DNA from: a virus
Reading direction: 5' to 3' (one strand)
Length of the DNA stretch: 64,000 nt
Virus record (IMG/VR): IMGVR_UViG_3300036826_000567
Span: 34,898-98,897 of that record
Part shown: positions 10,937 through 51,350 of the stretch, piece by piece
Position numbering within the stretch: the first letter of the stretch is position 1
Layout: each line of letters opens with the position of its first letter
The notes under the pieces: generated by a model
The model's database searches: none
Told to the model about the DNA's origin: nothing
The model's input: only the letters and a program-made list of their open reading frames with translations
Translations under genes and position numbers: made by a program

Positions 10937-11170
10937 ATGCTATGCTCCTTCTGTCTGTGGATGCTGTGCCGGGGGCCTGCTGCGAGGCCCCCTTCGTTGT
11001 TTCGAGCGCTTATTGTAGAGATTTTCGCCTTAGGGTGCGAGATATTCCCGCGCCGGATCGCCATTGGGCCTCCGACGCATCGTTTTGTGATTTCTGTACC
11101 ACCCCATAGGTGCATCGCCTTCGCCCTGCCACTGCTCAGCGGCTTGACAAGCCGCGTCGATATTCGCATA

Positions 11171-11311
11171 TCAAAAACTGTCGTGCGGCCCGAACTCATC
11201 GCCCACCCAGAGGCGTGCGTTGCCCCAGAGTTGGAGAGTCACGCCGATCCAACGGCCTGAGGGCAGGCGCCGGAGGTAGGCATGGTCATCGGGGTCGAGG
11301 GCGTTAGGCAT
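11171..11311 (-). CDS. Small hypothetical protein
   Basis: GGAGG RBS before MPNALDP. Confidence 0.45.
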   Translation of the reverse strand: MPNALDPDDHAYLRRLPSGRWIGVTLQLWGNARLWVGDEFGPHDSF

Positions 11312-11420
11312 GAAACACCTCCATTGTGCTATACTCCTTCTGTCTGTGGTACACGTACCAGCCAGTGCAGACCCTCCTGGGGCACCTGCCAGAGAGCGTC
11401 CCAGGAGGGCAGTTAAACGC

Positions 11421-11849
11421 TCAGAACCGCGCTGCCGTCCTCCGCAGCGCCTCAATGATCGCCACATAATTTTGCGGTTCGGGCTCGAGCCCGGTCAACT
11501 CCCTCGCCACGCGTTGTGCCTCCAACTTCGTGCCACCCCGCCACCCGTTGTCGCGGAGCAGGTCGAGAATCTGCTGCTTCAGCATGCGAATACACCGAGG
11601 ACAGAAATCTTTATCCGGCTCGACGTGGACAGCGCAGTGGACACAGATCGGCGCGTCACAGGTCTTCTTGCGCCGCCCGTCCGTGCGGCCATCACAGAGC
11701 CGCATCGCCACACACGGGTCCGCCGTCCCACAGACCACACAGCGCTGCATCTTCTTCTGGCGACGTCCGCGCGAGCAGACGATGGTGTGGGCATACTTGA
11801 CGGTGCCATCGGGGTTGTTGATGGGAATAGAGACGCGTTCACAGGGCAT
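11421..11849 (-). CDS. Cys-rich (zinc-finger-like) hypothetical protein
   Basis: Several CxxC pairs; AGGAGG RBS. Confidence 0.55.
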   Translation of the reverse strand: MPCERVSIPINNPDGTVKYAHTIVCSRGRRQKKMQRCVVCGTADPCVAMRLCDGRTDGRRKKTCDAPICVHCAVHVEPDKDFCPRCIRMLKQQILDLLRDNGWRGGTKLEAQRVARELTGLEPEPQNYVAIIEALRRTAARF

Positions 11850-31429: not shown

Positions 31430-31680
31430 CGGGCGTTCGGTTCCTGCCCCTGCCCACACTGATGACAGAGCTGGTACTGCACACATCCCCCTTCCCGTAC
31501 GCAATAAAATCGGTACTCTGTAATCGCGAACGCCCGTAGAATCGTCTGTCCAGGCAGGCGCTTCCCACTGAGCGTCTCGCTCAGGATGCTGTGGGAGCAC
31601 CCCACCTCGGCGGCGACTTCGCGATGCGAGCGGGTGCCGATGAGGCGACGGAGGTAGGTACGAACTTGGTCGAGGGTCAT
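31417..31680 (-). CDS. XRE HTH regulator
   Basis: SHREVAAEVGCSHSILSETLSGKRLPG. Confidence 0.75.
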   Translation of the reverse strand: MTLDQVRTYLRRLIGTRSHREVAAEVGCSHSILSETLSGKRLPGQTILRAFAITEYRFYCVREGGCVQYQLCHQCGQGQEPNARQQP

Positions 31681-42361: not shown

Positions 42362-42889
42362 ATGGAAAACACCGTGGTTATCACCGTCATTCTGCTGGTG
42401 CTGAGTTGTCTCATGGTCGCTCTCTGGGGCTCACGGAAAGAGTGGGCCTCGCGGCGCTGCCCCTTCTGCCGAGTCTATGTGTCCGTGCAGGCGACGGTAT
42501 GCTGGCGCTGCACCCGGGAGCTTCCGCCTCGCGGCACGAAGTATGCTATGCCCGTTCTTGTGGCTGGACTGCTCCTTGCTGGGACTGCCCAGGCACAATT
42601 CTTGAGCCCGACCGCGTGTGCTCGGATGAGCTTCTTTGCCGAAGAGGACTGCTCACCGCTGCCGGTCATCGCCCCTGTCCCGCCTCCTCCTGCCGCCGCC
42701 CCCTTGTTCACGAAGGAAACAGTTTCCCCGTACACTGCACCTGAACTCTTGGCCCTCTCGAATGACCGGACTCTCGAGAATGCCCGCTTCTATGTCCGGC
42801 GGCAGATCGAGCGCAACAACGCCACTGAGGAAGTGACGCGGTTGGTGCAACAAGCCTGGGACGAAGTAGGACGGCCCCATGTGCCGTAA
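42362..42889 (+). CDS. Protein with zinc ribbon and TraF-N-terminus-like helix (possible internal start at 42548)
   Basis: CPFC..CWRC; second signal-like stretch MPVLVAGLLLAGTAQA; 'RTLENARFYVRRQ' recalls the TraF PT.EN..Y..Q motif; no thioredoxin domain. Confidence 0.4.
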   Translation: MENTVVITVILLVLSCLMVALWGSRKEWASRRCPFCRVYVSVQATVCWRCTRELPPRGTKYAMPVLVAGLLLAGTAQAQFLSPTACARMSFFAEEDCSPLPVIAPVPPPPAAAPLFTKETVSPYTAPELLALSNDRTLENARFYVRRQIERNNATEEVTRLVQQAWDEVGRPHVP

Positions 42890-44159
42890 CGCGCTGCTGC
42901 TCGTCCTGTGTTTCGTCTCCTGGGCCGAGGCTGGTGACCATCTCCTATCATGGAAATATCAGCTAGACCTCCAACCCCAGGTGAAATATGTCCTCAACAT
43001 CGTGTCGATGAGAGGCGATAAACCCTTCATGGAGGAGCGCTGGATTGACCCCCTCTCGCGCCAAGAGTGCAGCCAATATACGATCGAGGGCGCAACGGCT
43101 GAGACCCAGTGTGCCGCGATCTGTCTGGACCCCGGTGACTATAGCCTGACGCTCTATGCTACGGCGGGCGATGTGCGCAGCCCGCGTAGCGTGCCCGTAC
43201 TCGATGTGGACCTGAGTACGGAGACCCCGTGCGCCGGTCCACCGCCTGGCCAGAAAACCCCGTTTCCAACCGTACCGGTGATCGCCGGCGTTACCGTGGG
43301 CGGAGGCGCCGCAGCCTATGCCGCCTTGCAAGCCCGTGACGAGGTTGCCCCGCTGCTTACCGGCATGGTCAACATGGGCTGCGTGACGTGGAAAGTGCTG
43401 GGTCCCTGTTTCTGCGGCCCAGCGGCCTGCGTGCAGGTGGAATACTGGGAGCCGGGCTGGCTCGTCGAGACCTCTATCCGCCCTGGCGATACGTCGTTAC
43501 CAGCGCCCTTTGGGTCGCTCGTGTCCGCAGCCATTGCCGCCGTCGCCCCCACCATCGGTGCCAGTGGGGGTGCTGGGGTCGCCACCAGCAGCAATATCCG
43601 CTTTGGCGATGTCCATGTGATTAGCCTGCCCAACCTCTTCGGCGGTCCCTGTACCGGCTGCGTGCCCTCCGGGGCCCCAGCCTTGAACTATGCGAGCGAG
43701 CTGGATGCGCCGAGTTGGCGGGTCGTTCCCCCCGTCGTCGGTCCGCTGGCGTTAGCGCTGCAGATTGGTTTCTGGGGTCCGCTCTATCCCCGCGTGGGGC
43801 ATGTGATCCATAGCTCGCCAGTGATTGCGAGCGGACTCCAGGCGGTGCGCGGGCTCAATATTGCGTTTCAGCCGGTGGGCGTGAACCCTCCGCCGGATGT
43901 CCATGTGGTGACCGCCCCGACCGATGGCACAAGTTTCTGTTGCCAACTCGCCGCCCCTCGCCAGACCCCGTGCTTCACTGCAGGGAGCCCGCCACCCTTC
44001 TTTGAACTCGGCTCAGGGAGTGTGTCCGGGAAGTACGCGTGGATTTTTTGGCGACGCAGGACGTGTTGTCTGCCCGCGCCGCCGGTGCCCTGTGGCATTG
44101 CCGCCCTCGGGTTGACGCAACCGCCGCAGAACGCCTGTCTGCCTCTTTCCACCCCGTAG
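42879..44159 (+). CDS. traU: TraU-like protein with extra N-terminal domain
   Basis: C..WKVLGPCFC..VEYWEP..VET; YASELD; WGPLYPR.G; YAWIFWRRRTCC. Confidence 0.85.
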   Translation: MCRNALLLVLCFVSWAEAGDHLLSWKYQLDLQPQVKYVLNIVSMRGDKPFMEERWIDPLSRQECSQYTIEGATAETQCAAICLDPGDYSLTLYATAGDVRSPRSVPVLDVDLSTETPCAGPPPGQKTPFPTVPVIAGVTVGGGAAAYAALQARDEVAPLLTGMVNMGCVTWKVLGPCFCGPAACVQVEYWEPGWLVETSIRPGDTSLPAPFGSLVSAAIAAVAPTIGASGGAGVATSSNIRFGDVHVISLPNLFGGPCTGCVPSGAPALNYASELDAPSWRVVPPVVGPLALALQIGFWGPLYPRVGHVIHSSPVIASGLQAVRGLNIAFQPVGVNPPPDVHVVTAPTDGTSFCCQLAAPRQTPCFTAGSPPPFFELGSGSVSGKYAWIFWRRRTCCLPAPPVPCGIAALGLTQPPQNACLPLSTP

Positions 44160-44795: not shown

Positions 44796-45036
44796 GGCGC
44801 GGACGGACGTGGTCGTATGTTGTCTGGCGGCTGGGCTGTTCGCGGTCCTCTCCGCCGTGGAGTTTCCTGCGGCCTATGCCGCCCCTGCGCATACCTGGCT
44901 GGCACACGGCCTGGCGGGGCTCTGGCTCGGCGTCTGCTGTGTGCGGGTGCAGCATACTAGTCGCCAGCGCTGGCATTTGAGCCACAATACACCGGTGGCG
45001 ATGTCGGCCACTGCGGTGCGTAAACTGTATGACTGA
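44779..45036 (+). CDS. Two-TM protein equivalent to the membrane anchor of TraD
   Basis: Two TM helices; ends RKLYD* one base out of frame with the TraD start. Confidence 0.55.
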   Translation: MPTKVKARTDVVVCCLAAGLFAVLSAVEFPAAYAAPAHTWLAHGLAGLWLGVCCVRVQHTSRQRWHLSHNTPVAMSATAVRKLYD

Positions 45037-46582
45037 CGCCAGCGGACGCCTCTATTTTGGGCAGGGATTTCGGTGGCACCAGCAGCACACGCAGCAGATC
45101 GAATCCCTCATTTTCCATGACGGGTATGTGCCCACCGCCACGGATAGCCAGGGGGGGTGCCCGGCCTTTGCCGCCGTTGGCGCACGTGAGGCGCGTCCCG
45201 TCTGGCTGGATGACAGCCGTCTTGAAGGGCACGTCGGCGTCGTGAGCACGACCGGCTCGGGCAAAACGTCGCTCTTCAAGATGCTCATCCTCGGCAGTAT
45301 TCCGCAGCGGGGGCCAACCATCGTGATTGATCCCAAGTTCGACAGACCCGATGATCTTTGCCTGCCTACGGCACTTGCTGCGTATCGGGCCGGCAAACGT
45401 TTTGTGCTCATCATGCCGGCCTTCTATCGCCATTCCGCCCATATGAACGTCCTGGATACCGCGGAAGAGGCTCCAGAAGTCGTCGCTCGCATCCAGGCGC
45501 TGCTCCCTGGTGGAGGCGGGAGCGTTGGTGAGCCCTTCTTTAACGAGTTCGCGCTGGGCTTGATCCAGCGCATTGCCACCGCACAGCAACGCCTGCGGCA
45601 GCCGTGGACGCTGGAAGGTGTGTACCGGGCGGCGCTCTATCCCCAGGCTCTCCGTCAACTTCTCAGTGACTATCTCGGCGCGCTCGGGTTCGCTGGTCCC
45701 TTGCGGGACGCGACCCAAGCCTATCAGGCCAGCGGTCTCCAGGACCTGGTGGCCGATGGGCTCATTAATGATCAGCGGCGTGATCCTGACCATTTTCAGC
45801 GCATTTCGACCTCCCTTGATCCGGCCTTTCGTGGCGTCATTGGGCAACCCTATGGCGATCTCTTCAGCGATCTGACGACGGATGTGACCTGGACCAACAT
45901 CGTCCGCGAAGAGATGGTGGTCTATATCGGGCTCAGTAGTCTCATCCTGCAAGAGATGGCCAACCGCATCGGGCGCATTATCCTGCAAGACCTGGTGGGC
46001 TACCTGGGGCGGCGTTCGACGCGGGAGCCCATCGCCTCCGCTGCGACCATTCGCGTCTTTATCGATGAGTTTGGGGATATCATGTATCCCCTCTTTACCA
46101 ACGCGCTCAATAAGGGGCGCAGTCCCAAAGCCCGCTTCTTCCTGGCCATGCAAAGCCTGGCGGACCCGGAATCCGCCTCCAGCCCGGTCGAAGCGAAGCG
46201 CGTCCTGGACAATCTCGGGACGCAAATCTGGATGCGGCAAGCCAGCGCTGAGACGGCGGAGATCGTCTCCCGGGGCTTCGGACTGTGTCGCGTCATGTTG
46301 CCAGATACCCGCGTCGGGCAGGGGATGGGAGGCCAGGGTGGCCTCAGTGCCAATGCCTCACGCGGTCTGACGCCTGAATCTGCCTCGCTGCTTGACCTGA
46401 CCTGGTTCACGCAATTACCCAAAGGCCACGCCTTCATGCGGCTCGATGGGGAGCCCTGGTATCTGCAAGTGCCCTATGTCACGCCCTTCACCCGGCGCGA
46501 TATGCTCGGTCTCGACGCCTCATTGCTGGGGATGTCGACGGTTCTTCAACTGCCTCAAGGAAAGGAATCTGCCCATGTCTAG
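45029..46582 (+). CDS. traD: Type IV coupling protein TraD (SXT/PFGI-1-like)
   Basis: LYFGQGFRW..HTQ; Walker A STTGSGKT; VIDPK; Walker B VFIDEF; LNKGR; Q..AD. Confidence 0.92.
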   Translation: MTDASGRLYFGQGFRWHQQHTQQIESLIFHDGYVPTATDSQGGCPAFAAVGAREARPVWLDDSRLEGHVGVVSTTGSGKTSLFKMLILGSIPQRGPTIVIDPKFDRPDDLCLPTALAAYRAGKRFVLIMPAFYRHSAHMNVLDTAEEAPEVVARIQALLPGGGGSVGEPFFNEFALGLIQRIATAQQRLRQPWTLEGVYRAALYPQALRQLLSDYLGALGFAGPLRDATQAYQASGLQDLVADGLINDQRRDPDHFQRISTSLDPAFRGVIGQPYGDLFSDLTTDVTWTNIVREEMVVYIGLSSLILQEMANRIGRIILQDLVGYLGRRSTREPIASAATIRVFIDEFGDIMYPLFTNALNKGRSPKARFFLAMQSLADPESASSPVEAKRVLDNLGTQIWMRQASAETAEIVSRGFGLCRVMLPDTRVGQGMGGQGGLSANASRGLTPESASLLDLTWFTQLPKGHAFMRLDGEPWYLQVPYVTPFTRRDMLGLDASLLGMSTVLQLPQGKESAHV

Positions 46583-46952
46583 GACCATCAGCCTCCTGCT
46601 CGCCCTCACCGTGTTTGGCTGTGCCACGCTTGGTCGGCGTGTGAACGAAGGACAACTCACAGATTTTGTCCCTGGAGAAACCACCTATTTTGAGGTGGTC
46701 GCAACCCTCGGCCTCCCGACCAATGAGCTGCGCAATCCTGATGGCACACGCCAGATTGTGTATGCCTATCAGCATGACCAGATCAATCCCGAAGCGGTGA
46801 TTCCCGGCGTCGGGATGCTGTTTAAGGAGCGCAGCACCGAGTATGCGCAGACCACCATCTACTTTGATCAGCAGAACCGCTACCTCTCTTACTCTCAAAG
46901 TCAGGGCCGCACCGACTATGGGCGCGGGCCGATTGCCGGTGGCCGCCAATGA
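46575..46952 (+). CDS. SmpA/OmlA(BamE)-like lipoprotein
   Basis: Lipobox VFGC; G.TT..EVVATLGLP..DGTR..YAY..IYFD. Confidence 0.65.
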   Translation: MSRTISLLLALTVFGCATLGRRVNEGQLTDFVPGETTYFEVVATLGLPTNELRNPDGTRQIVYAYQHDQINPEAVIPGVGMLFKERSTEYAQTTIYFDQQNRYLSYSQSQGRTDYGRGPIAGGRQ

Positions 46953-47290
46953 AGAAAGGATCTGCAATGCCGCTCTTATCCTCCGCATTCTTGGTCGCAC
47001 TCTTATGGGCGCAGCATGTTCCCATGACGTGTACGCCTGCTGGCGCATGCCAGATGGATGGCACTCCGACCCTGACGGTTGTGGCCAACTTTGAGAGCTG
47101 GGAACTGTGCCAAGATGCTCAACAGAGGTGGACACAGGCAGCGCATGTTGGCCTGCTTGCCCGCTATCATCCCCAGGTCGGGGAGCCTTTTCAGATGATC
47201 GACACGCTCTATCGTTGTGAGGAGCCCGGGGATGAGCCCCCTCGCGTGCAGGGACTTACCTTCACGTTTCCTCCCAAGCGACCTTCCTAG
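46949..47290 (+). CDS. Secreted hypothetical protein
   Basis: Hydrophobic leader; Cys pairs. Confidence 0.5.
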   Translation: MKKGSAMPLLSSAFLVALLWAQHVPMTCTPAGACQMDGTPTLTVVANFESWELCQDAQQRWTQAAHVGLLARYHPQVGEPFQMIDTLYRCEEPGDEPPRVQGLTFTFPPKRPS

Positions 47291-47341
47291 AGGGATCGAC
47301 ATTGTCCCTCTCCCTGTCCCGTAGCGACTACGGGATGCCCT

Positions 47342-47367
47342 GCCTCCCGGCGATTTGGGAGGTTTTT
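47342..47367 (+). terminator. Intrinsic terminator ending the tra operon
   Basis: CCTCCC-loop-GGGAGG followed by TTTTT. Confidence 0.6.
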
Positions 47368-47390
47368 GTCCCCAAGACAAGGAGTCGTTC

Positions 47391-47603
47391 GTGAAGAGAA
47401 TGACCATCGAAGTGCCAGAAGACGTCTGCGTGGCCATTGAGGACGAGGCCGTGCGTGAGTTCCGCACGCCGCCTCAGCAAGCCAGTTATCTCCTCCTGAT
47501 CTGGGCGCGTGAGCAACAGACGAGGCGCCAGAAGACCGAAAAAGCCGCGCCTGGGGGAATGCGGGCGCGGGGTGACGAGGTGCTAAACGGGGCAGCGGTC
47601 TAG
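47391..47603 (+). CDS. Ribbon-helix-helix (Arc-like) protein, possible relaxosome accessory
   Basis: KRMTIEVPEDVCVAIEDEA..FRT..QQA.YLL; AAGGAG RBS. Confidence 0.55.
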   Translation: MKRMTIEVPEDVCVAIEDEAVREFRTPPQQASYLLLIWAREQQTRRQKTEKAAPGGMRARGDEVLNGAAV

Positions 47604-47795
47604 CCCTTCTCCTTCCTCTCCCACGCCGGGCCGGTGTCCCCTTTCCGGCCCCCCCTCTCTCGCATTTTCCCCAGCCGGTTCTCAGGATGACGCCACCTGT
47701 CCGCATCGTCATGCAGGCGGCAATAACAAGGCAGGTGAGCAGCCAAGGACGCCTGATCGCGGCTGGCGGCGAGACAATCGTGTGGTAAAACGATC

Positions 47796-47825
47796 TTGAC
47801 TTTTGTGCCGCAAACAGGGTACATT
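47796..47825 (+). promoter_or_regulatory. Sigma70-type promoter
   Basis: TTGACT-N18-TACATT immediately upstream of the structured region. Confidence 0.55.
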
Positions 47826-47831
47826 GTCGCA

Positions 47832-48245
47832 TCTGATGTGCTGGGGACACATCCTGCTTCGGCAGTGCACGCGGGAGCGTGCGGAGTCATCACAGCTGCT
47901 ACCCATACTCCTAGCAGCAGCAGTACCGACCGCATCGTTCAGGTGCGGCGGGTGTCGCGGGGATGCAAGAGGCCCCTTGGAGCAGCAGCTCCACGACGCC
48001 GATCGAACGCATCGGCGGTAGACACGTTTTCCCATGTTCGCCACAACTGAAGAGTGGTCTGTGCCATCGCGCATGGCTACGTCCGCGTCAGGGATTGGGC
48101 ACCCGCCACTGCGGCTAGCACCGATGGTCCGACGTGTGTGGACGGCATGTCGTCTCAGGTACGAGCTGTCGAGCCGCCGTACGTGAGACACCCACATGAC
48201 TGGCACAGGGTCAGTCGTGATGTCGAGGACTCAGCCCAGATCAAG
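47832..48245 (+). ncRNA. Candidate large structured RNA or ssDNA element (unassigned)
   Basis: More than ten consecutive stem-loops, including CTGC-TTCG-GCAG and GCACGC-GGGA-GCGTGC; long-range helix 47947-47956/48098-48107. Confidence 0.55.
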
Positions 48246-48266
48246 GATCATAGAGGAGAATCTACT

Positions 48267-48800
48267 ATGACAGGGCACCAGCAGACAGGGCTAGCGCAGG
48301 TGAAGGCGCTGGTGGTCGCAGTGAGAGGGTTTCTGGAAGGGACACGCGTGCGGGCGGCCTGGATGGAGCCGGCATGCTATGTGTTGTTTGGCGTCGCGAT
48401 GATGGCGCTGGCAACACAGGCGCATTTTCTGTGGGCCGTGATCCCGCTCGGCGGGATTGGGGTGATCTGTGGGATTGGGCGCCACTTGGAGACCCTGGAA
48501 TGGCAGGAGCAGGCGGAGGCGCTGGAAGCGGACACGATCTGCTGGCGCTATGGGATGGAGGACGGAACCGCCCAGCAAGTGCTGTTCGAGTGGCAGGAAT
48601 TTCTCGAGCAGGGGGAAGACGCGTGTGATCCGTTTGAGGGGCTACCACCGCAAGGCCAGGCAGCCAGGGGCAGTGCAACTGCCGCGTCGATGGCAGCGGA
48701 GCTCAACGTTCCGCACGAGTCATCGATGGTGGGCGAGCAGCCAGGGGATGACGTCTGGGGCCATTATTGGTTCTGCGACGAAGTCCCGGATCTGGACTAA
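48267..48800 (+). CDS. Hypothetical membrane protein with acidic tail
   Basis: AGAGGAG RBS; two TM helices. Confidence 0.55.
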   Translation: MTGHQQTGLAQVKALVVAVRGFLEGTRVRAAWMEPACYVLFGVAMMALATQAHFLWAVIPLGGIGVICGIGRHLETLEWQEQAEALEADTICWRYGMEDGTAQQVLFEWQEFLEQGEDACDPFEGLPPQGQAARGSATAASMAAELNVPHESSMVGEQPGDDVWGHYWFCDEVPDLD

Positions 48801-49053
48801 GCCACCAGCAGGACGCTGAAGGGCACGCAGAGGGGGTGGGAGCACTCGGCCCCCTCGGCGTGGAGAGCGACGAGTGTTGACATAGAGTCGGTTGGACGGT
48901 TCATGCGGACTGAAGCCGGCCCTCGAAAAAGAGCGCGGGTCGTCAGCCTACGGGGGTCAGTCCAGATCATCACACATCCCGAGGGAAGGAGACACGGGCA
49001 TGCAAGGACCGTGGGCTCAGGGAGTAGCACTCAACACATGGAAGGCAGGTGTG

Positions 49054-49944
49054 ATGCATACGTTACTGTGGGAACTGAAGGCATTATGTGATCGCGTGCA
49101 TGAGGGGAGTTACCACTATCGCCAGAAGCGCAGTGAGGTGCTGTTGCTGGCGGCGCGGCAACTGACGACGCGGGTCGAGCGTGGGGGGCTGGGGTATACG
49201 CAGATGCGGCTGGGGGATTTCGAGCGCAAGCATAGCCGCAAGCTGCTGGCGCTGTGGCAGTCGCAAGGGTTGACGGTAGAGACCCTGATGAATCGGTATG
49301 CCCATCTCCGGTGGTGGTGTGAAAAGATCGGCAAGCCGGACGTCATTCCGCCCACCAATGACTTTATCAAGGGGGAGCGCACGGGCGAGGTGGCGACGGT
49401 CTCGAAGGGGCAGCGGCTGACGCCAGAGGAACTGGAGCGGATCAGCGATCCATGGATACGGCTCTCGGTGGAATTACAGCAGGCGTTTGGGCTCAGGCGC
49501 GAAGAGGCCATCTGCATCCGGCCGCACCGGGCGGACCAGGGGGACCGGCTCTGGCTGAAGGGGAGCTGGTGCAAAGGGGGCCGGGAGCGGACGATCCCGA
49601 TTGAAACCGCCGAGCAGCGGGCGCTCCTCGACCGGGCCAAGGCGTTTGTGCGCTGGAAGGACGCCAGCCTGATTCCGCCAGGGAAGCAGAGCTATCAACA
49701 GATCAATCGCTATACGTATGTGATCAAGCAGGCGGGGCTGGCGGCGCTGCATGGGCTGCGCCACGGGCATTTTCAGGAGAAGTATGCCGCACTCACGGGG
49801 CATCCGGTGCCGGTCGAGGGTGGACCCTCGCGCCGAGAGATGACCGAGGACGAGCGCCAGCGGGATAGCGAGGTACGCCAGCAGCTCGCCGAGGAACTCG
49901 GGCATGGGCGGGCACGGGTGACCTCACACTATTTTGGACGCTAG
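49054..49944 (+). CDS. Tyrosine-recombinase-fold protein (Phage_int_SAM_2 + Integrase_1 type)
   Basis: LKALC..EGS..R..L..Q..LGY..KH..W..T..NR..LRWW.EKIGK N-domain; FGLRREEA, KGGRER, HGLRH, ELGHGR..TSHY catalytic set. Confidence 0.88.
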   Translation: MHTLLWELKALCDRVHEGSYHYRQKRSEVLLLAARQLTTRVERGGLGYTQMRLGDFERKHSRKLLALWQSQGLTVETLMNRYAHLRWWCEKIGKPDVIPPTNDFIKGERTGEVATVSKGQRLTPEELERISDPWIRLSVELQQAFGLRREEAICIRPHRADQGDRLWLKGSWCKGGRERTIPIETAEQRALLDRAKAFVRWKDASLIPPGKQSYQQINRYTYVIKQAGLAALHGLRHGHFQEKYAALTGHPVPVEGGPSRREMTEDERQRDSEVRQQLAEELGHGRARVTSHYFGR

Positions 49945-49952
49945 GGAGCGGT

Positions 49953-50312
49953 ATGCCGCCGCGGGGGTATCGCAGTCCACAGTATCAGGCCTATATCCAG
50001 TCGCCACCGTGGCGGGCGTTGGCGGCCCAGGTGCGCCGGCGCGATGGCTACCGCTGTCGTCAGTGTGGGGCTCGAGGGCGATTGGATGTGCACCACCTGA
50101 CCTATGTGCGGTTCGGGCATGAACGTTTGGAGGATCTGCTCACGCTCTGCCGTCCGTGCCATGACGCGGCCCATGACCGTGTACCAGTGTCCGCGCCGAC
50201 GGGCCAAGGCCAGGGTTGTCTGCTGGCCGTGCTGCTCAGTCTGTGCTTCATCGTCATCCTCATCGTGCTCGCACATTTTCACCGCTTTGACGTCCTCCCC
50301 CCACTAAAGTAG
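49953..50312 (+). CDS. HNH endonuclease with C-terminal TM helix (3' end altered by IS)
   Basis: YI.SP.W..RRDGYRCRQCG..LDVHHLTY..DLLTLCRPCH; hydrophobic tail. Confidence 0.8.
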   Translation: MPPRGYRSPQYQAYIQSPPWRALAAQVRRRDGYRCRQCGARGRLDVHHLTYVRFGHERLEDLLTLCRPCHDAAHDRVPVSAPTGQGQGCLLAVLLSLCFIVILIVLAHFHRFDVLPPLK

Positions 50313-51350
50313 GGGGATTCCCGCAGGCGTAGCACGTCCGCTACGGAGTAAGATGTTATGTGCAGCATTGGTATCGCGATCATGCAGAACACCGCAACTG
50401 GTACAACACCATACCCTCACGTCCAGGCAACTCAGTCCACTCGGGCCGGTGCGACTACCACAGGCCGAGCAAGTTACCGTGGACCCGGATTCATTCACAT
50501 CGCAATATTCCACGCCAAGCCTCATGGCTTTGTATACAAGCATGGTACGAAACATGGACCAACCCGCATCATAGATCGATTTCGCCATGCGGGTCTTGGC
50601 AAGCTTCGAACTGGAGATATTGCCCACGGCAATCAACCGTGCCCGCTGCGCAATAGTGGTCGAGGTTTTATGTGCCCAGTCTTTGCGGCAATTGGCGATC
50701 TTGGCATGGATCGCGCTAACACGCCGCTTCTTATGGGCTCTCTGTACCATGGCCAAAGCATCTTCATAGGTACGCGTCAGATTCTTTCTCGAGTATTTGA
50801 CGCCATCGGAGCAGGCAATCAAGTCTTTCAAACCAAGGTCAAGACCAATGTCAGCGGTCGAAGTCGAGGGCTGTGGCAGCTCAACTTCACACTGGATGTT
50901 GACGTACCAGCGTCCACGTGCGTCTTGCGTAAAGCTCCCAGTCTTCGGTGTGCCTTCGATCGGACGCGACGCCCAAAAGCGATAGCGGCGTTTCAGGTAC
51001 GTCAAGCTGTCGTCGTCCAGCTTGAGAAAGCGCAGCTTGAAGGGCACCCAGCCGAGCGAGCGCTTCCGACTACGCCACTTCAGCCGTCGCTTGCGACTGG
51101 CATAGCGCTTCCCCACATATTCCCGACAAATCTCGGAGATGGTGTCACTGTGCAGGCCAAGCTCCGCACTGGCACCAGCGGTCAAATTAATCAAGTCTAC
51201 CGCCGTCAAGAAGCGCTTATCACGGCGCAGCGCAAGCATGCTGACTTCATTACACCAGTTCCAGACAGTATTGACAGCCCAGCTCAGCCGCCTGAGGTGT
51301 TTGCCTTTGGTCGCATCTTTGATGCGGTAGCGAAACGTCAGTATCGACAT
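50304..51350 (-). CDS. tnpB: TnpB with rearranged RuvC-II
   Basis: GLDLG; IAVGN in place of the canonical Glu; alternative Glu in VNES; CSACG..CTSCG; DRDTNAA. Confidence 0.93.
   Translation of the reverse strand: MSILTFRYRIKDATKGKHLRRLSWAVNTVWNWCNEVSMLALRRDKRFLTAVDLINLTAGASAELGLHSDTISEICREYVGKRYASRKRRLKWRSRKRSLGWVPFKLRFLKLDDDSLTYLKRRYRFWASRPIEGTPKTGSFTQDARGRWYVNIQCEVELPQPSTSTADIGLDLGLKDLIACSDGVKYSRKNLTRTYEDALAMVQRAHKKRRVSAIHAKIANCRKDWAHKTSTTIAQRARLIAVGNISSSKLAKTRMAKSIYDAGWSMFRTMLVYKAMRLGVEYCDVNESGSTVTCSACGSRTGPSGLSCLDVRVWCCTSCGVLHDRDTNAAHNILLRSGRATPAGIPLL

Follow-up and report, generated by a model that had tools for sequence, protein, structure and literature searches.

Salmonella Genomic Island 1 (SGI1) encodes the recombinase-like relaxase MpsA, and the approximately 750 nt on the 5' side of mpsA hold, in this order, the promoter P5, a GC-rich terminator-like inverted repeat, the open reading frame (ORF) S022 with its ideal Shine-Dalgarno sequence, the origin of transfer (oriT) and the core of the RNA sgm-sRNA (PMC6414798, PMC9299015). 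The oriT is a GC-rich segment of 125 bp composed of several inverted repeats (PMC6414798). The P5 transcript passes through it towards mpsA, and sgm-sRNA, processed from this 650-700-nt transcript, is essential for SGI1 mobilisation (PMC6414798, PMC9299015). In SGI1, pCW3 and pIGRK alike the oriT lies upstream of the relaxase gene (PMC9299015), and elements of the MOB_M class, to which MpsA is now assigned, are reported to keep oriT between the T4SS (type IV secretion system) operon and the relaxase gene (bioRxiv 10.64898/2026.01.13.699239). MOB_M relaxases are reported to be systematically missed by existing relaxase profiles and were overlooked until recently; in the data set of the same preprint they are reported as the most common relaxases on bacterial chromosomes (bioRxiv 10.64898/2026.01.13.699239).

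Here we describe a locus of comparable layout in a 64,000-nt stretch of DNA (the window), positions 34898-98897 of the linear 98.9-kb IMG/VR record IMGVR_UViG_3300036826_000567 from a soil metagenome; coordinates refer to the window, and rank statistics cover the whole 98.9 kb. The subject is a 663-nt stretch (47604-48266) between the genes for the T4SS and its coupling protein and a relaxase-like gene, within which an earlier note, made from the sequence, had placed an undescribed structured RNA or a folded oriT. We lean towards reading this stretch as a candidate oriT within the transcribed leader of a MOB_M (MpsA-type) relaxase module. The module is most likely a variant of a known one, which agrees with the mobilisation region of SGI1 (mobSGI1) in enzyme family, position and architecture, and most likely does not represent a new class of RNA. 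What we observed directly is the anatomy of the stretch, that it is non-coding and exceptionally dense in hairpins, to which family the neighbouring gene belongs, and that a relative has the same layout. The window would add an independent and very divergent MOB_M example, in which a few hundred bases of a self-transmissible phage-like element contain the candidate oriT and leader; taken alone, this element reveals no new kind of molecule. To our knowledge, SGI1 is the sole MOB_M member with both a mapped oriT and a required RNA.

A relaxase-like gene preceded by hairpin-rich non-coding DNA

The gene at 49054-49944, formerly described as a Tyr recombinase, belongs on the evidence of its sequence to PF12835, the family of MpsA, and hence to the class now called MOB_M. 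Its product (the 49054 protein) matches PF12835 at 26.5 bits (cut-off 23) and the SGI1 MpsA homologue by BLASTP at E 6e-18, with 32% identity across the catalytic half. Residues R148, K174, H233, R236, H237 and Y293 align with MpsA R162, K, H247, R250, H251 and Y319, so that the protein combines PF12835 with the R-K-H-R-H-Y catalytic set of the MpsA family. SGI1 was represented by L097, a Salmonella record in PLSDB whose SGI1 mob region was recognised by the published P5 promoter TTGACG-16-TAATAT and whose mpsA product (321 aa) matches PF12835 at 43.5 bits. The same Pfam family serves as the MpsA-type "INT_DTR_like" signature in a published classifier (PMC10484663). Profiles for MOBP/Q, MOBH and MOBF relaxases found no match in the 98.9-kb record, which lacks roughly 12% of the genome.

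Upstream of this gene, a codon-usage score trained on 36 long ORFs from the same genome was negative in all six frames over 47565-48195 and positive for the frames of the two flanking ORFs, a ribbon-helix-helix (RHH)-like ORF on the 5' side and p177 on the 3' side. Because the scores are negative and the ORFs within 47604-48266 have no Pfam match, the stretch is considered non-coding, and a hidden protein gene was rejected. Such a gap is unusually long for a record as compact and gene-dense as this one.

The density of hairpins sets the stretch apart from the rest of the genome. Hairpin cover was taken as the bases lying in perfect short hairpins with a stem of at least 5 (for 250-nt segments also of at least 6). 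By this measure the 120-nt segment at 47831 ties for first rank (78 of 120 bases, stem of at least 5), and the 250-nt segment at 47772-47835 ranks first for both stem cut-offs. The region opens with five tandem short GC-rich inverted repeats (the array), among them the hairpin CTGC-TTCG-GCAG. Watson-Crick pairs make up nearly the whole of their stems, G-U pairs being almost absent, and when folded as DNA the array reaches z -2.5 on the plus and -2.9 on the minus strand, without strand preference. Near-pure Watson-Crick pairing and equal folding on both strands favour a site that acts at the DNA level, such as an oriT. For the same reasons, the earlier argument that UUCG and GNRA loops together with G-U pairs point to a plus-strand RNA is a weak one.

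All stems quoted in the earlier note are present in the sequence, where it had placed them or at most 1 nt away, and eight of the eleven are predicted in the Boltzmann ensemble with pair probabilities of 0.84-1.0. The other three are not favoured: GAUGUG/CACAUC has a pair probability of 0.02, and GCCAU/AUGGC and the 10-bp helix GGCGGGUGUC/GGCACCCGCC, which had been proposed to close a multibranch domain, have pair probabilities of about 0. The closed multibranch domain is unsupported because of these last two values. Thus, of the highly structured non-coding element of ~420 nt that had been claimed, the non-coding character and the dense, real and unusual stems hold, but a single closed 420-nt fold finds no support in the energy model. 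Compared with dinucleotide shuffles, a comparison that the earlier note had proposed, the fold is better than its controls, but modestly so (z -1.9 to -2.3). As RNA, 47830-48250 gives z -2.31 on the plus and -1.30 on the minus strand, 47826-48266 gives z -1.92, and among sliding 150-nt segments within the element 47850-47999 alone reaches z -2.7. Hairpin cover is a cruder measure than the fold z-score, yet the more telling one.

We see only a small chance that the stretch is an ordinary intergenic spacer or 5' untranslated region, with functionless hairpins that arise from GC-rich non-coding DNA and from the choice of stems by eye. The low whole-region z-scores would fit such a spacer, as would the similar or better values of nearby 150-nt segments (48650-48799, z -3.1), the three of eleven claimed stems that are not predicted, and a promoter-like match that occurs once where 0.5 are expected. 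A mere spacer is, however, difficult to reconcile with the first rank in the genome for hairpin cover at two segment sizes and two stem cut-offs, with the same feature at the same place in the relative G001 (second in 141.6 kb), with the family-wide hairpin enrichment 5' of PF12835 genes described below, and with a length of 660 nt, unusual for a compact, gene-dense record.

With regard to transcription, the promoter TTGACT-N18-TACATT that had been claimed at 47796-47825 was recovered by a consensus scan as the sole sigma-70-like site in 46900-49100, where shuffles average 0.5 such sites; it lies 10 nt before the first stem. The scan found no terminator-like site between 47826 and 48266, and in the absence of an intrinsic terminator at the end of the stretch a transcript would continue into p177. 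Since the RNA folds somewhat better on the plus strand, the promoter-like site lies 10 nt before the stems and no terminator precedes p177, the stretch is probably also transcribed, as a leader. Its layout differs from that of a stand-alone small RNA gene: it has no terminator of its own, and p177, with its ribosome-binding site and start codon, follows without a break. Of the sequencing runs found with the window sequence, one is probably its source, another, also from soil, carries an identical sequence, and the last has short pieces that are unrelated; there were no sequence variants among these runs, and none of those listed is an RNA run.

An account in which the stretch acts mainly as RNA, either as a processed trans-acting RNA like sgm-sRNA or as a cis-regulatory 5' leader for p177 and the relaxase, with the oriT elsewhere, appears unlikely to us. 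Its attractions are the promoter-like site so close to the first stem, the better fold of the whole region on the plus strand, the requirement of SGI1 for an RNA from the same relative position (PMC9299015), and a marine leader known from 15 loci (see below), in which many GU/GC/AU exchanges preserve pairing on the sense strand only and 12 pairs show compensatory changes. These are offset by the modest z-scores, the strand-symmetric array almost devoid of G-U pairs, the unfavoured closing helix, the lack of a terminator or defined 3' end, the absence of the sequence from any RNA run among the runs listed, and the fact that neither sgm-sRNA nor the marine leader (covariance model R1) nor any Rfam family shows homology to it. 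Moreover, the functional RNA core of SGI1 adjoins mpsA and thereby corresponds by position to the second spacer of the window (48801-49053), not to 47604-48266. This spacer has a plus-strand-specific structure of similarly modest strength, with an RNA fold z of -2.42 overall and of -2.8 on the plus and -0.6 on the minus strand for the 150-nt segment 48800-48949. By analogy with sgm-sRNA, a transcript of either the hairpin-rich stretch or 48801-49053 might be processed into a trans-acting RNA required by the MOB_M relaxase, a proposal we regard as doubtful. If it were true, RNA-dependent relaxosomes would be general to MOB_M and would extend to a T4SS-bearing phage-like element of soil bacteria, and the many unrelated structured leaders 5' of PF12835 genes would all belong to a single functional class of RNA that evolves fast.

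Layout in relatives and at other PF12835 loci

The gene order of type IV coupling protein (T4CP), p168 and recombinase-like gene (Int) is conserved in the relatives that the searches yielded, namely G001, a circular 141.6-kb IMG/VR record (T4CP 47% identical), and L095, a 122.7-kb metagenome contig (T4CP 39% identical). By tblastn, p168 has counterparts of 31-38% identity in G001 (L090, L092, L093) and in L094/L095, always between T4CP and Int. The linked genes occupy 45029-49944 in the window, 6001-8787 in L090 and 8001-10953 in L095.

In G001, the module of regulator, leader, ORF and Int is inverted. A gene resembling HTH_17 (E 3e-4, below the cut-off) is followed by the promoter-like TTGACA-N17-TATCCT and directly thereafter by a tandem-hairpin array, which ranks second in the 141.6 kb for hairpin cover and lies inside ~900 nt of non-coding DNA 5' of the Int homologue. 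A poorly scoring 70-aa ORF adjoins Int, and the 576-nt stretch from just past the promoter to this ORF folds with z -3.29 in sense and -2.02 in antisense orientation. In L095, Int starts 120 nt after p168, and a non-coding hairpin-rich stretch of ~750 nt (11000-11770), with a five-hairpin array at 11604-11736, is located directly 3' of Int; this downstream location argues against a purely 5' leader role in the relaxase mRNA. Judged against G001 and L095, p177 appears to be an insertion within the leader.

We think it very unlikely that the 49054 protein is a true site-specific recombinase, acting in integration or in multimer/dimer resolution, and that the inverted repeats are its attP, res or dif-like site. 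Such a role would account for the core-binding-type N-terminal domain (PF12834) and the complete catalytic set of the protein, for the excisionase-like HTH_17 gene (below the cut-off, as noted) 5' of the array in G001, and for the neighbourhood of gene and repeats, since recombination sites usually adjoin the gene of their own recombinase. Most plasmids with a PF12835-family relative are, in addition, typed as non-mobilizable: relatives of the 49054 protein are encoded by 211 plasmids in PLSDB, many of them small Acinetobacter or Shewanella plasmids, and 127 are so typed by MOB-suite. This label is weak evidence because MOB-suite typing may miss MOB_M relaxases, and the plasmids may be mis-typed if the family consists of relaxases. 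Further points against a recombinase are the T4CP-p168 linkage, which is kept in three divergent conjugative relatives at 39-47% T4CP identity, and the failure of the MOBP/Q, MOBH and MOBF profiles to find another relaxase in the record. No tRNA or tRNA-like core was found in the window, and a tRNA-type attachment core was accordingly rejected. Nor is there a standout pair of 11-13-bp arms around a 6-8-bp spacer, the best inverted repeat having 12-nt arms 14 nt apart.

Hairpins are also enriched at PF12835 loci at large. In a set of 84 further loci, drawn from genomes and viral contigs, perfect hairpins cover a fraction of 0.15-0.18 of the bases between -800 and -100 relative to the start codon vs 0.05-0.07 elsewhere, a 2-3-fold enrichment. 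When the largest cluster is set aside, the remaining 58 loci still show it. Such enrichment may be a general marker for the oriT or leader regions of MOB_M modules.

A leader of ~530 nt, bounded by a promoter-like TGACA-N17-TATAGT and by the ATG of the PF12835 gene, was observed in 15 marine gammaproteobacterial loci (Halieaceae and relatives; L035:4441-5003). It is ~84% conserved, has variable sites without 3-nt periodicity, as befits non-coding DNA, and contains some twenty hairpins. Twelve pairs carry compensatory changes, many GU/GC/AU exchanges preserve pairing on the sense strand only, and the consensus-fold energy is -151 in sense vs -129 in antisense orientation. Its 5' hairpin array was captured in the 143-position covariance model R1, which scores 91-168 bits on 24 true members and finds the leader in 24-26 of the 84 loci. 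Like the stretch in the window, the marine leader is non-coding, belongs to no Rfam family and consists of a promoter-like site, five tandem hairpins and then more hairpins; it differs in adjoining the Int start codon directly and in its sense-strand-specific covariation. With filters off, the best R1 hit in 47300-49100 has 5.0 bits (E 0.17) and covers one hairpin only, which does not amount to a match, and R1 does not match in G001, L095 or SGI1 either.

A hairpin of the form ACCGC-loop-GCGG(T) recurs 5' of PF12835 genes in several unrelated clusters (marine alignment columns 524-537; upstream regions of L008, L014, L016, L019, L030, L036 and L056) and within the oriT of SGI1 (L097:2740). As a signature it was rejected: window stem H5 (47929-47951) fits it loosely, and the pattern carries little weight because it occurs 25 times in the genome and is absent from the G001 leader.

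Searches for homologues of the non-coding DNA itself were negative. Rfam, which the earlier note had named as a check, gave no match at gathering thresholds across the whole window. At E <= 10, the single Rfam 15 match in 47300-49100 was to anti-hemB (20 bits); it lies at 47305-47370 and thus not in the element, and at E <= 0.1 nothing relevant was found in L035, L097, L090 or L095. Hammerhead, STAXI and RAGATH-13 RNAs had no match in the Rfam scans of the window. DNA homologues of 47290-48270 were found neither elsewhere in the same genome nor in PLSDB plasmids, G001, 86 Int loci or T4CP-related loci, and a blastn comparison of the upstream 1.5 kb of the window with the upstream 1 kb of SGI1 gave nothing at E 1e-4. 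Rfam has no family for sgm-sRNA or the oriT of SGI1.

Motifs shared by the leaders of the window and G001 were likewise rejected, as k-mer sharing does not exceed that of shuffles. The sequence TTGACATAGA, common to the spacer 48801-49053 and to G001 at 31647, is compatible with chance. A 14-nt identity, GGCGGGTGTCGCGG, between window 47947-47960, in the claimed closing stem, and L095 10040-10053, 37 nt upstream of the Int homologue, is probably also due to chance (blastn E 0.7; absent from G001). Also rejected was a Frpo-like single-strand promoter, given that neither strand has a long imperfect hairpin. As far as their sequences tell, the leader regions of the window, G001, L095, SGI1 and other PF12835 loci share architecture, not sequence.

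Comparison with mobSGI1

The likeness of the locus to mobSGI1 extends over several features. Both have a relaxase-like gene of the same Pfam family with the same catalytic residues; a sigma-70-like promoter several hundred nt 5' of this gene, pointing at it; GC-rich hairpins directly past the promoter; a small ORF whose ribosome-binding site is strong and whose product has a hydrophobic N-terminus, in the stretch that is, or in the window would be, transcribed; and about five tandem short GC-rich inverted repeats in 110-150 bp. In L097, the oriT of SGI1 (2626-2775) comprises five tandem short hairpins, one of them ACCGCC-TTCG-GCGGT, and folds as DNA with z -9.2. More generally, the window shares with MOB_M systems, TcpM of pCW3 and MobK of pIGRK a tyrosine-recombinase-like protein in relaxase position beside the coupling-protein gene.

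The differences concern order, domain structure and setting, and the T4SS of the window is of a distant F/SXT-like type. SGI1 has the order promoter, ORF, oriT, sRNA core and mpsA, whereas the window has promoter, hairpin array, ORF, spacer and relaxase-like gene. The core-binding domain (PF12834) is fused to the window enzyme, while SGI1 has a separate MpsB; no separate MpsB was found downstream of the relaxase-like gene, where an HNH protein gene follows. Finally, the window element bears its own T4SS on a phage-like record, independent of a helper plasmid.

That the stretch is a functional cis region linked to the recombinase-like gene is supported by where it lies, by how densely it is packed with hairpins, by the matching layout of G001 and by the hairpin enrichment across the family. 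Its oriT activity, its transcription and any RNA role are what we infer. The stretch would be the cis-acting control region of the relaxase module, with the operon for the T4SS and coupling protein on one side and the relaxase-like gene on the other. The array (47835-47951), possibly together with the hairpins that follow it, would serve as the origin of transfer, to which the relaxase-like protein would bind, perhaps aided by the RHH protein, and which it would nick, whereupon conjugative transfer would start. The same DNA would be transcribed from the predicted promoter and form a long leader on the mRNA for p177, and possibly on that for the relaxase, comparable to the P5 transcript of SGI1. 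Of the two functions put forward in the earlier note, a non-coding RNA, possibly a cofactor or guide, and a folded oriT, each has a precedent in the PF12835 family, sgm-sRNA and the oriT of SGI1, respectively. The oriT fits best, and since modules of this type are known, the word "undescribed" claims too much novelty.

Several observations weigh against an oriT in the array. With respect to the GC-rich, multi-repeat form of oriT, position and architecture fit, but the inverted repeats of the window are far weaker than those of the proven oriT of SGI1 (z -2.5 to -2.9 vs -9.2). The p177 gene and the second spacer of 253 nt separate the array from the relaxase-like gene, for which reason 48801-49053 could be the place of the true oriT. 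The hairpin-rich DNA of L095 is found downstream of Int, and its better fold is on the strand opposite to Int (z -3.81 vs -1.86). Hairpins are generally more abundant in intergenic than in coding DNA. Neither by sequence nor by covariance model was the region found to resemble those of SGI1, G001, L095 or the marine cluster, so that the basis of the assignment is position and architecture. Even MpsA goes by the term "presumed relaxase" (PMC9299015), and DNA nicking by the PF12835 family as a whole is putative. With G001 and the family-wide enrichment, the candidate oriT of the window suggests a rule that could aid annotation pipelines in the search for MOB_M oriTs, namely a promoter and then a tandem-hairpin array beside the relaxase gene.

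Features of the locus and neighbouring genes

The features of the locus are collected in Table 1.

Table 1 Genes, predicted signals and non-coding segments from the end of the T4SS operon to tnpB (window coordinates).
Feature	Position	Strand	Basis or remark
TraU-like protein	42879-44159
Type IV coupling protein (T4CP, TraD-like)	45029-46582	+	Pfam TraG-D_C, TrwB_AAD_bind, T4SS-DNA_transf; near the end of the T4SS operon
p168, small conserved protein	46446-46952	+	Accompanies T4CP and relaxase-like gene in relatives
p113, small protein	46949-47290
Terminator-like hairpin and T-run, closing the tra operon	47342-47373	+	Consensus scan; local fold z -4.1 (47250-47399)
RHH-like ORF, 70 aa	47391-47603	+	Pfam RHH_5 weak, E 0.0034, below cut-off; codon score positive
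Non-coding stretch, 663 nt, containing the whole finding	47604-48266	.	Codon score and Pfam
Predicted sigma-70-like promoter TTGACT-N18-TACATT	47796-47825	+	Consensus match
Array of five tandem short GC-rich inverted repeats, best oriT candidate	47835-47951	.	Hairpin cover, DNA fold
Leader hairpins UGGAGC/GCUCCA, CGCCGAU/AUCGGCG, GUCUCA.GUACG/CGUAC.UGAGAC, CAUGACUGGC/GUCAGUCGUG	47952-48245	+	Pair probabilities 0.92-1.0
p177, 177-aa membrane protein, strong ribosome-binding site (GAGGAG)	48267-48800	+	Codon score; between leader and relaxase-like gene
Second non-coding spacer, 253 nt, TTGACA at 48877	48801-49053	+	Adjoins the relaxase-like gene on its 5' side
MOB_M (MpsA-type) recombinase-like relaxase candidate, 296 aa	49054-49944	+	PF12835 Integrase_1 and PF12834 Phage_int_SAM_2, both above cut-off
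HNH-domain ORF	49953-50312		Directly 3' of the relaxase-like gene
TnpB (IS605 OrfB) gene	50304-51350		Opposite strand, convergent to the HNH ORF

Against the NCBIfam model SXT_TraD, the T4CP scores 226 bits, under the cut-off of that model. The product of the RHH-like ORF is a candidate relaxosome accessory protein or regulator. For p177, the sole relative among 5.8 billion proteins is a 111-aa protein, 83% identical over the N-terminal part (about half of p177), a degree of identity which indicates that a close relative of the element exists; scans of IMG/VR and JGI metagenomes with p177 retrieved no close relatives.

A TnpB guide RNA as an explanation of the hairpin-rich stretch was rejected, tnpB being 2 kb away and on the other strand. 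The HNH ORF overlaps the final 9 nt of tnpB and the region just downstream of it, which is the expected place of the TnpB guide RNA.

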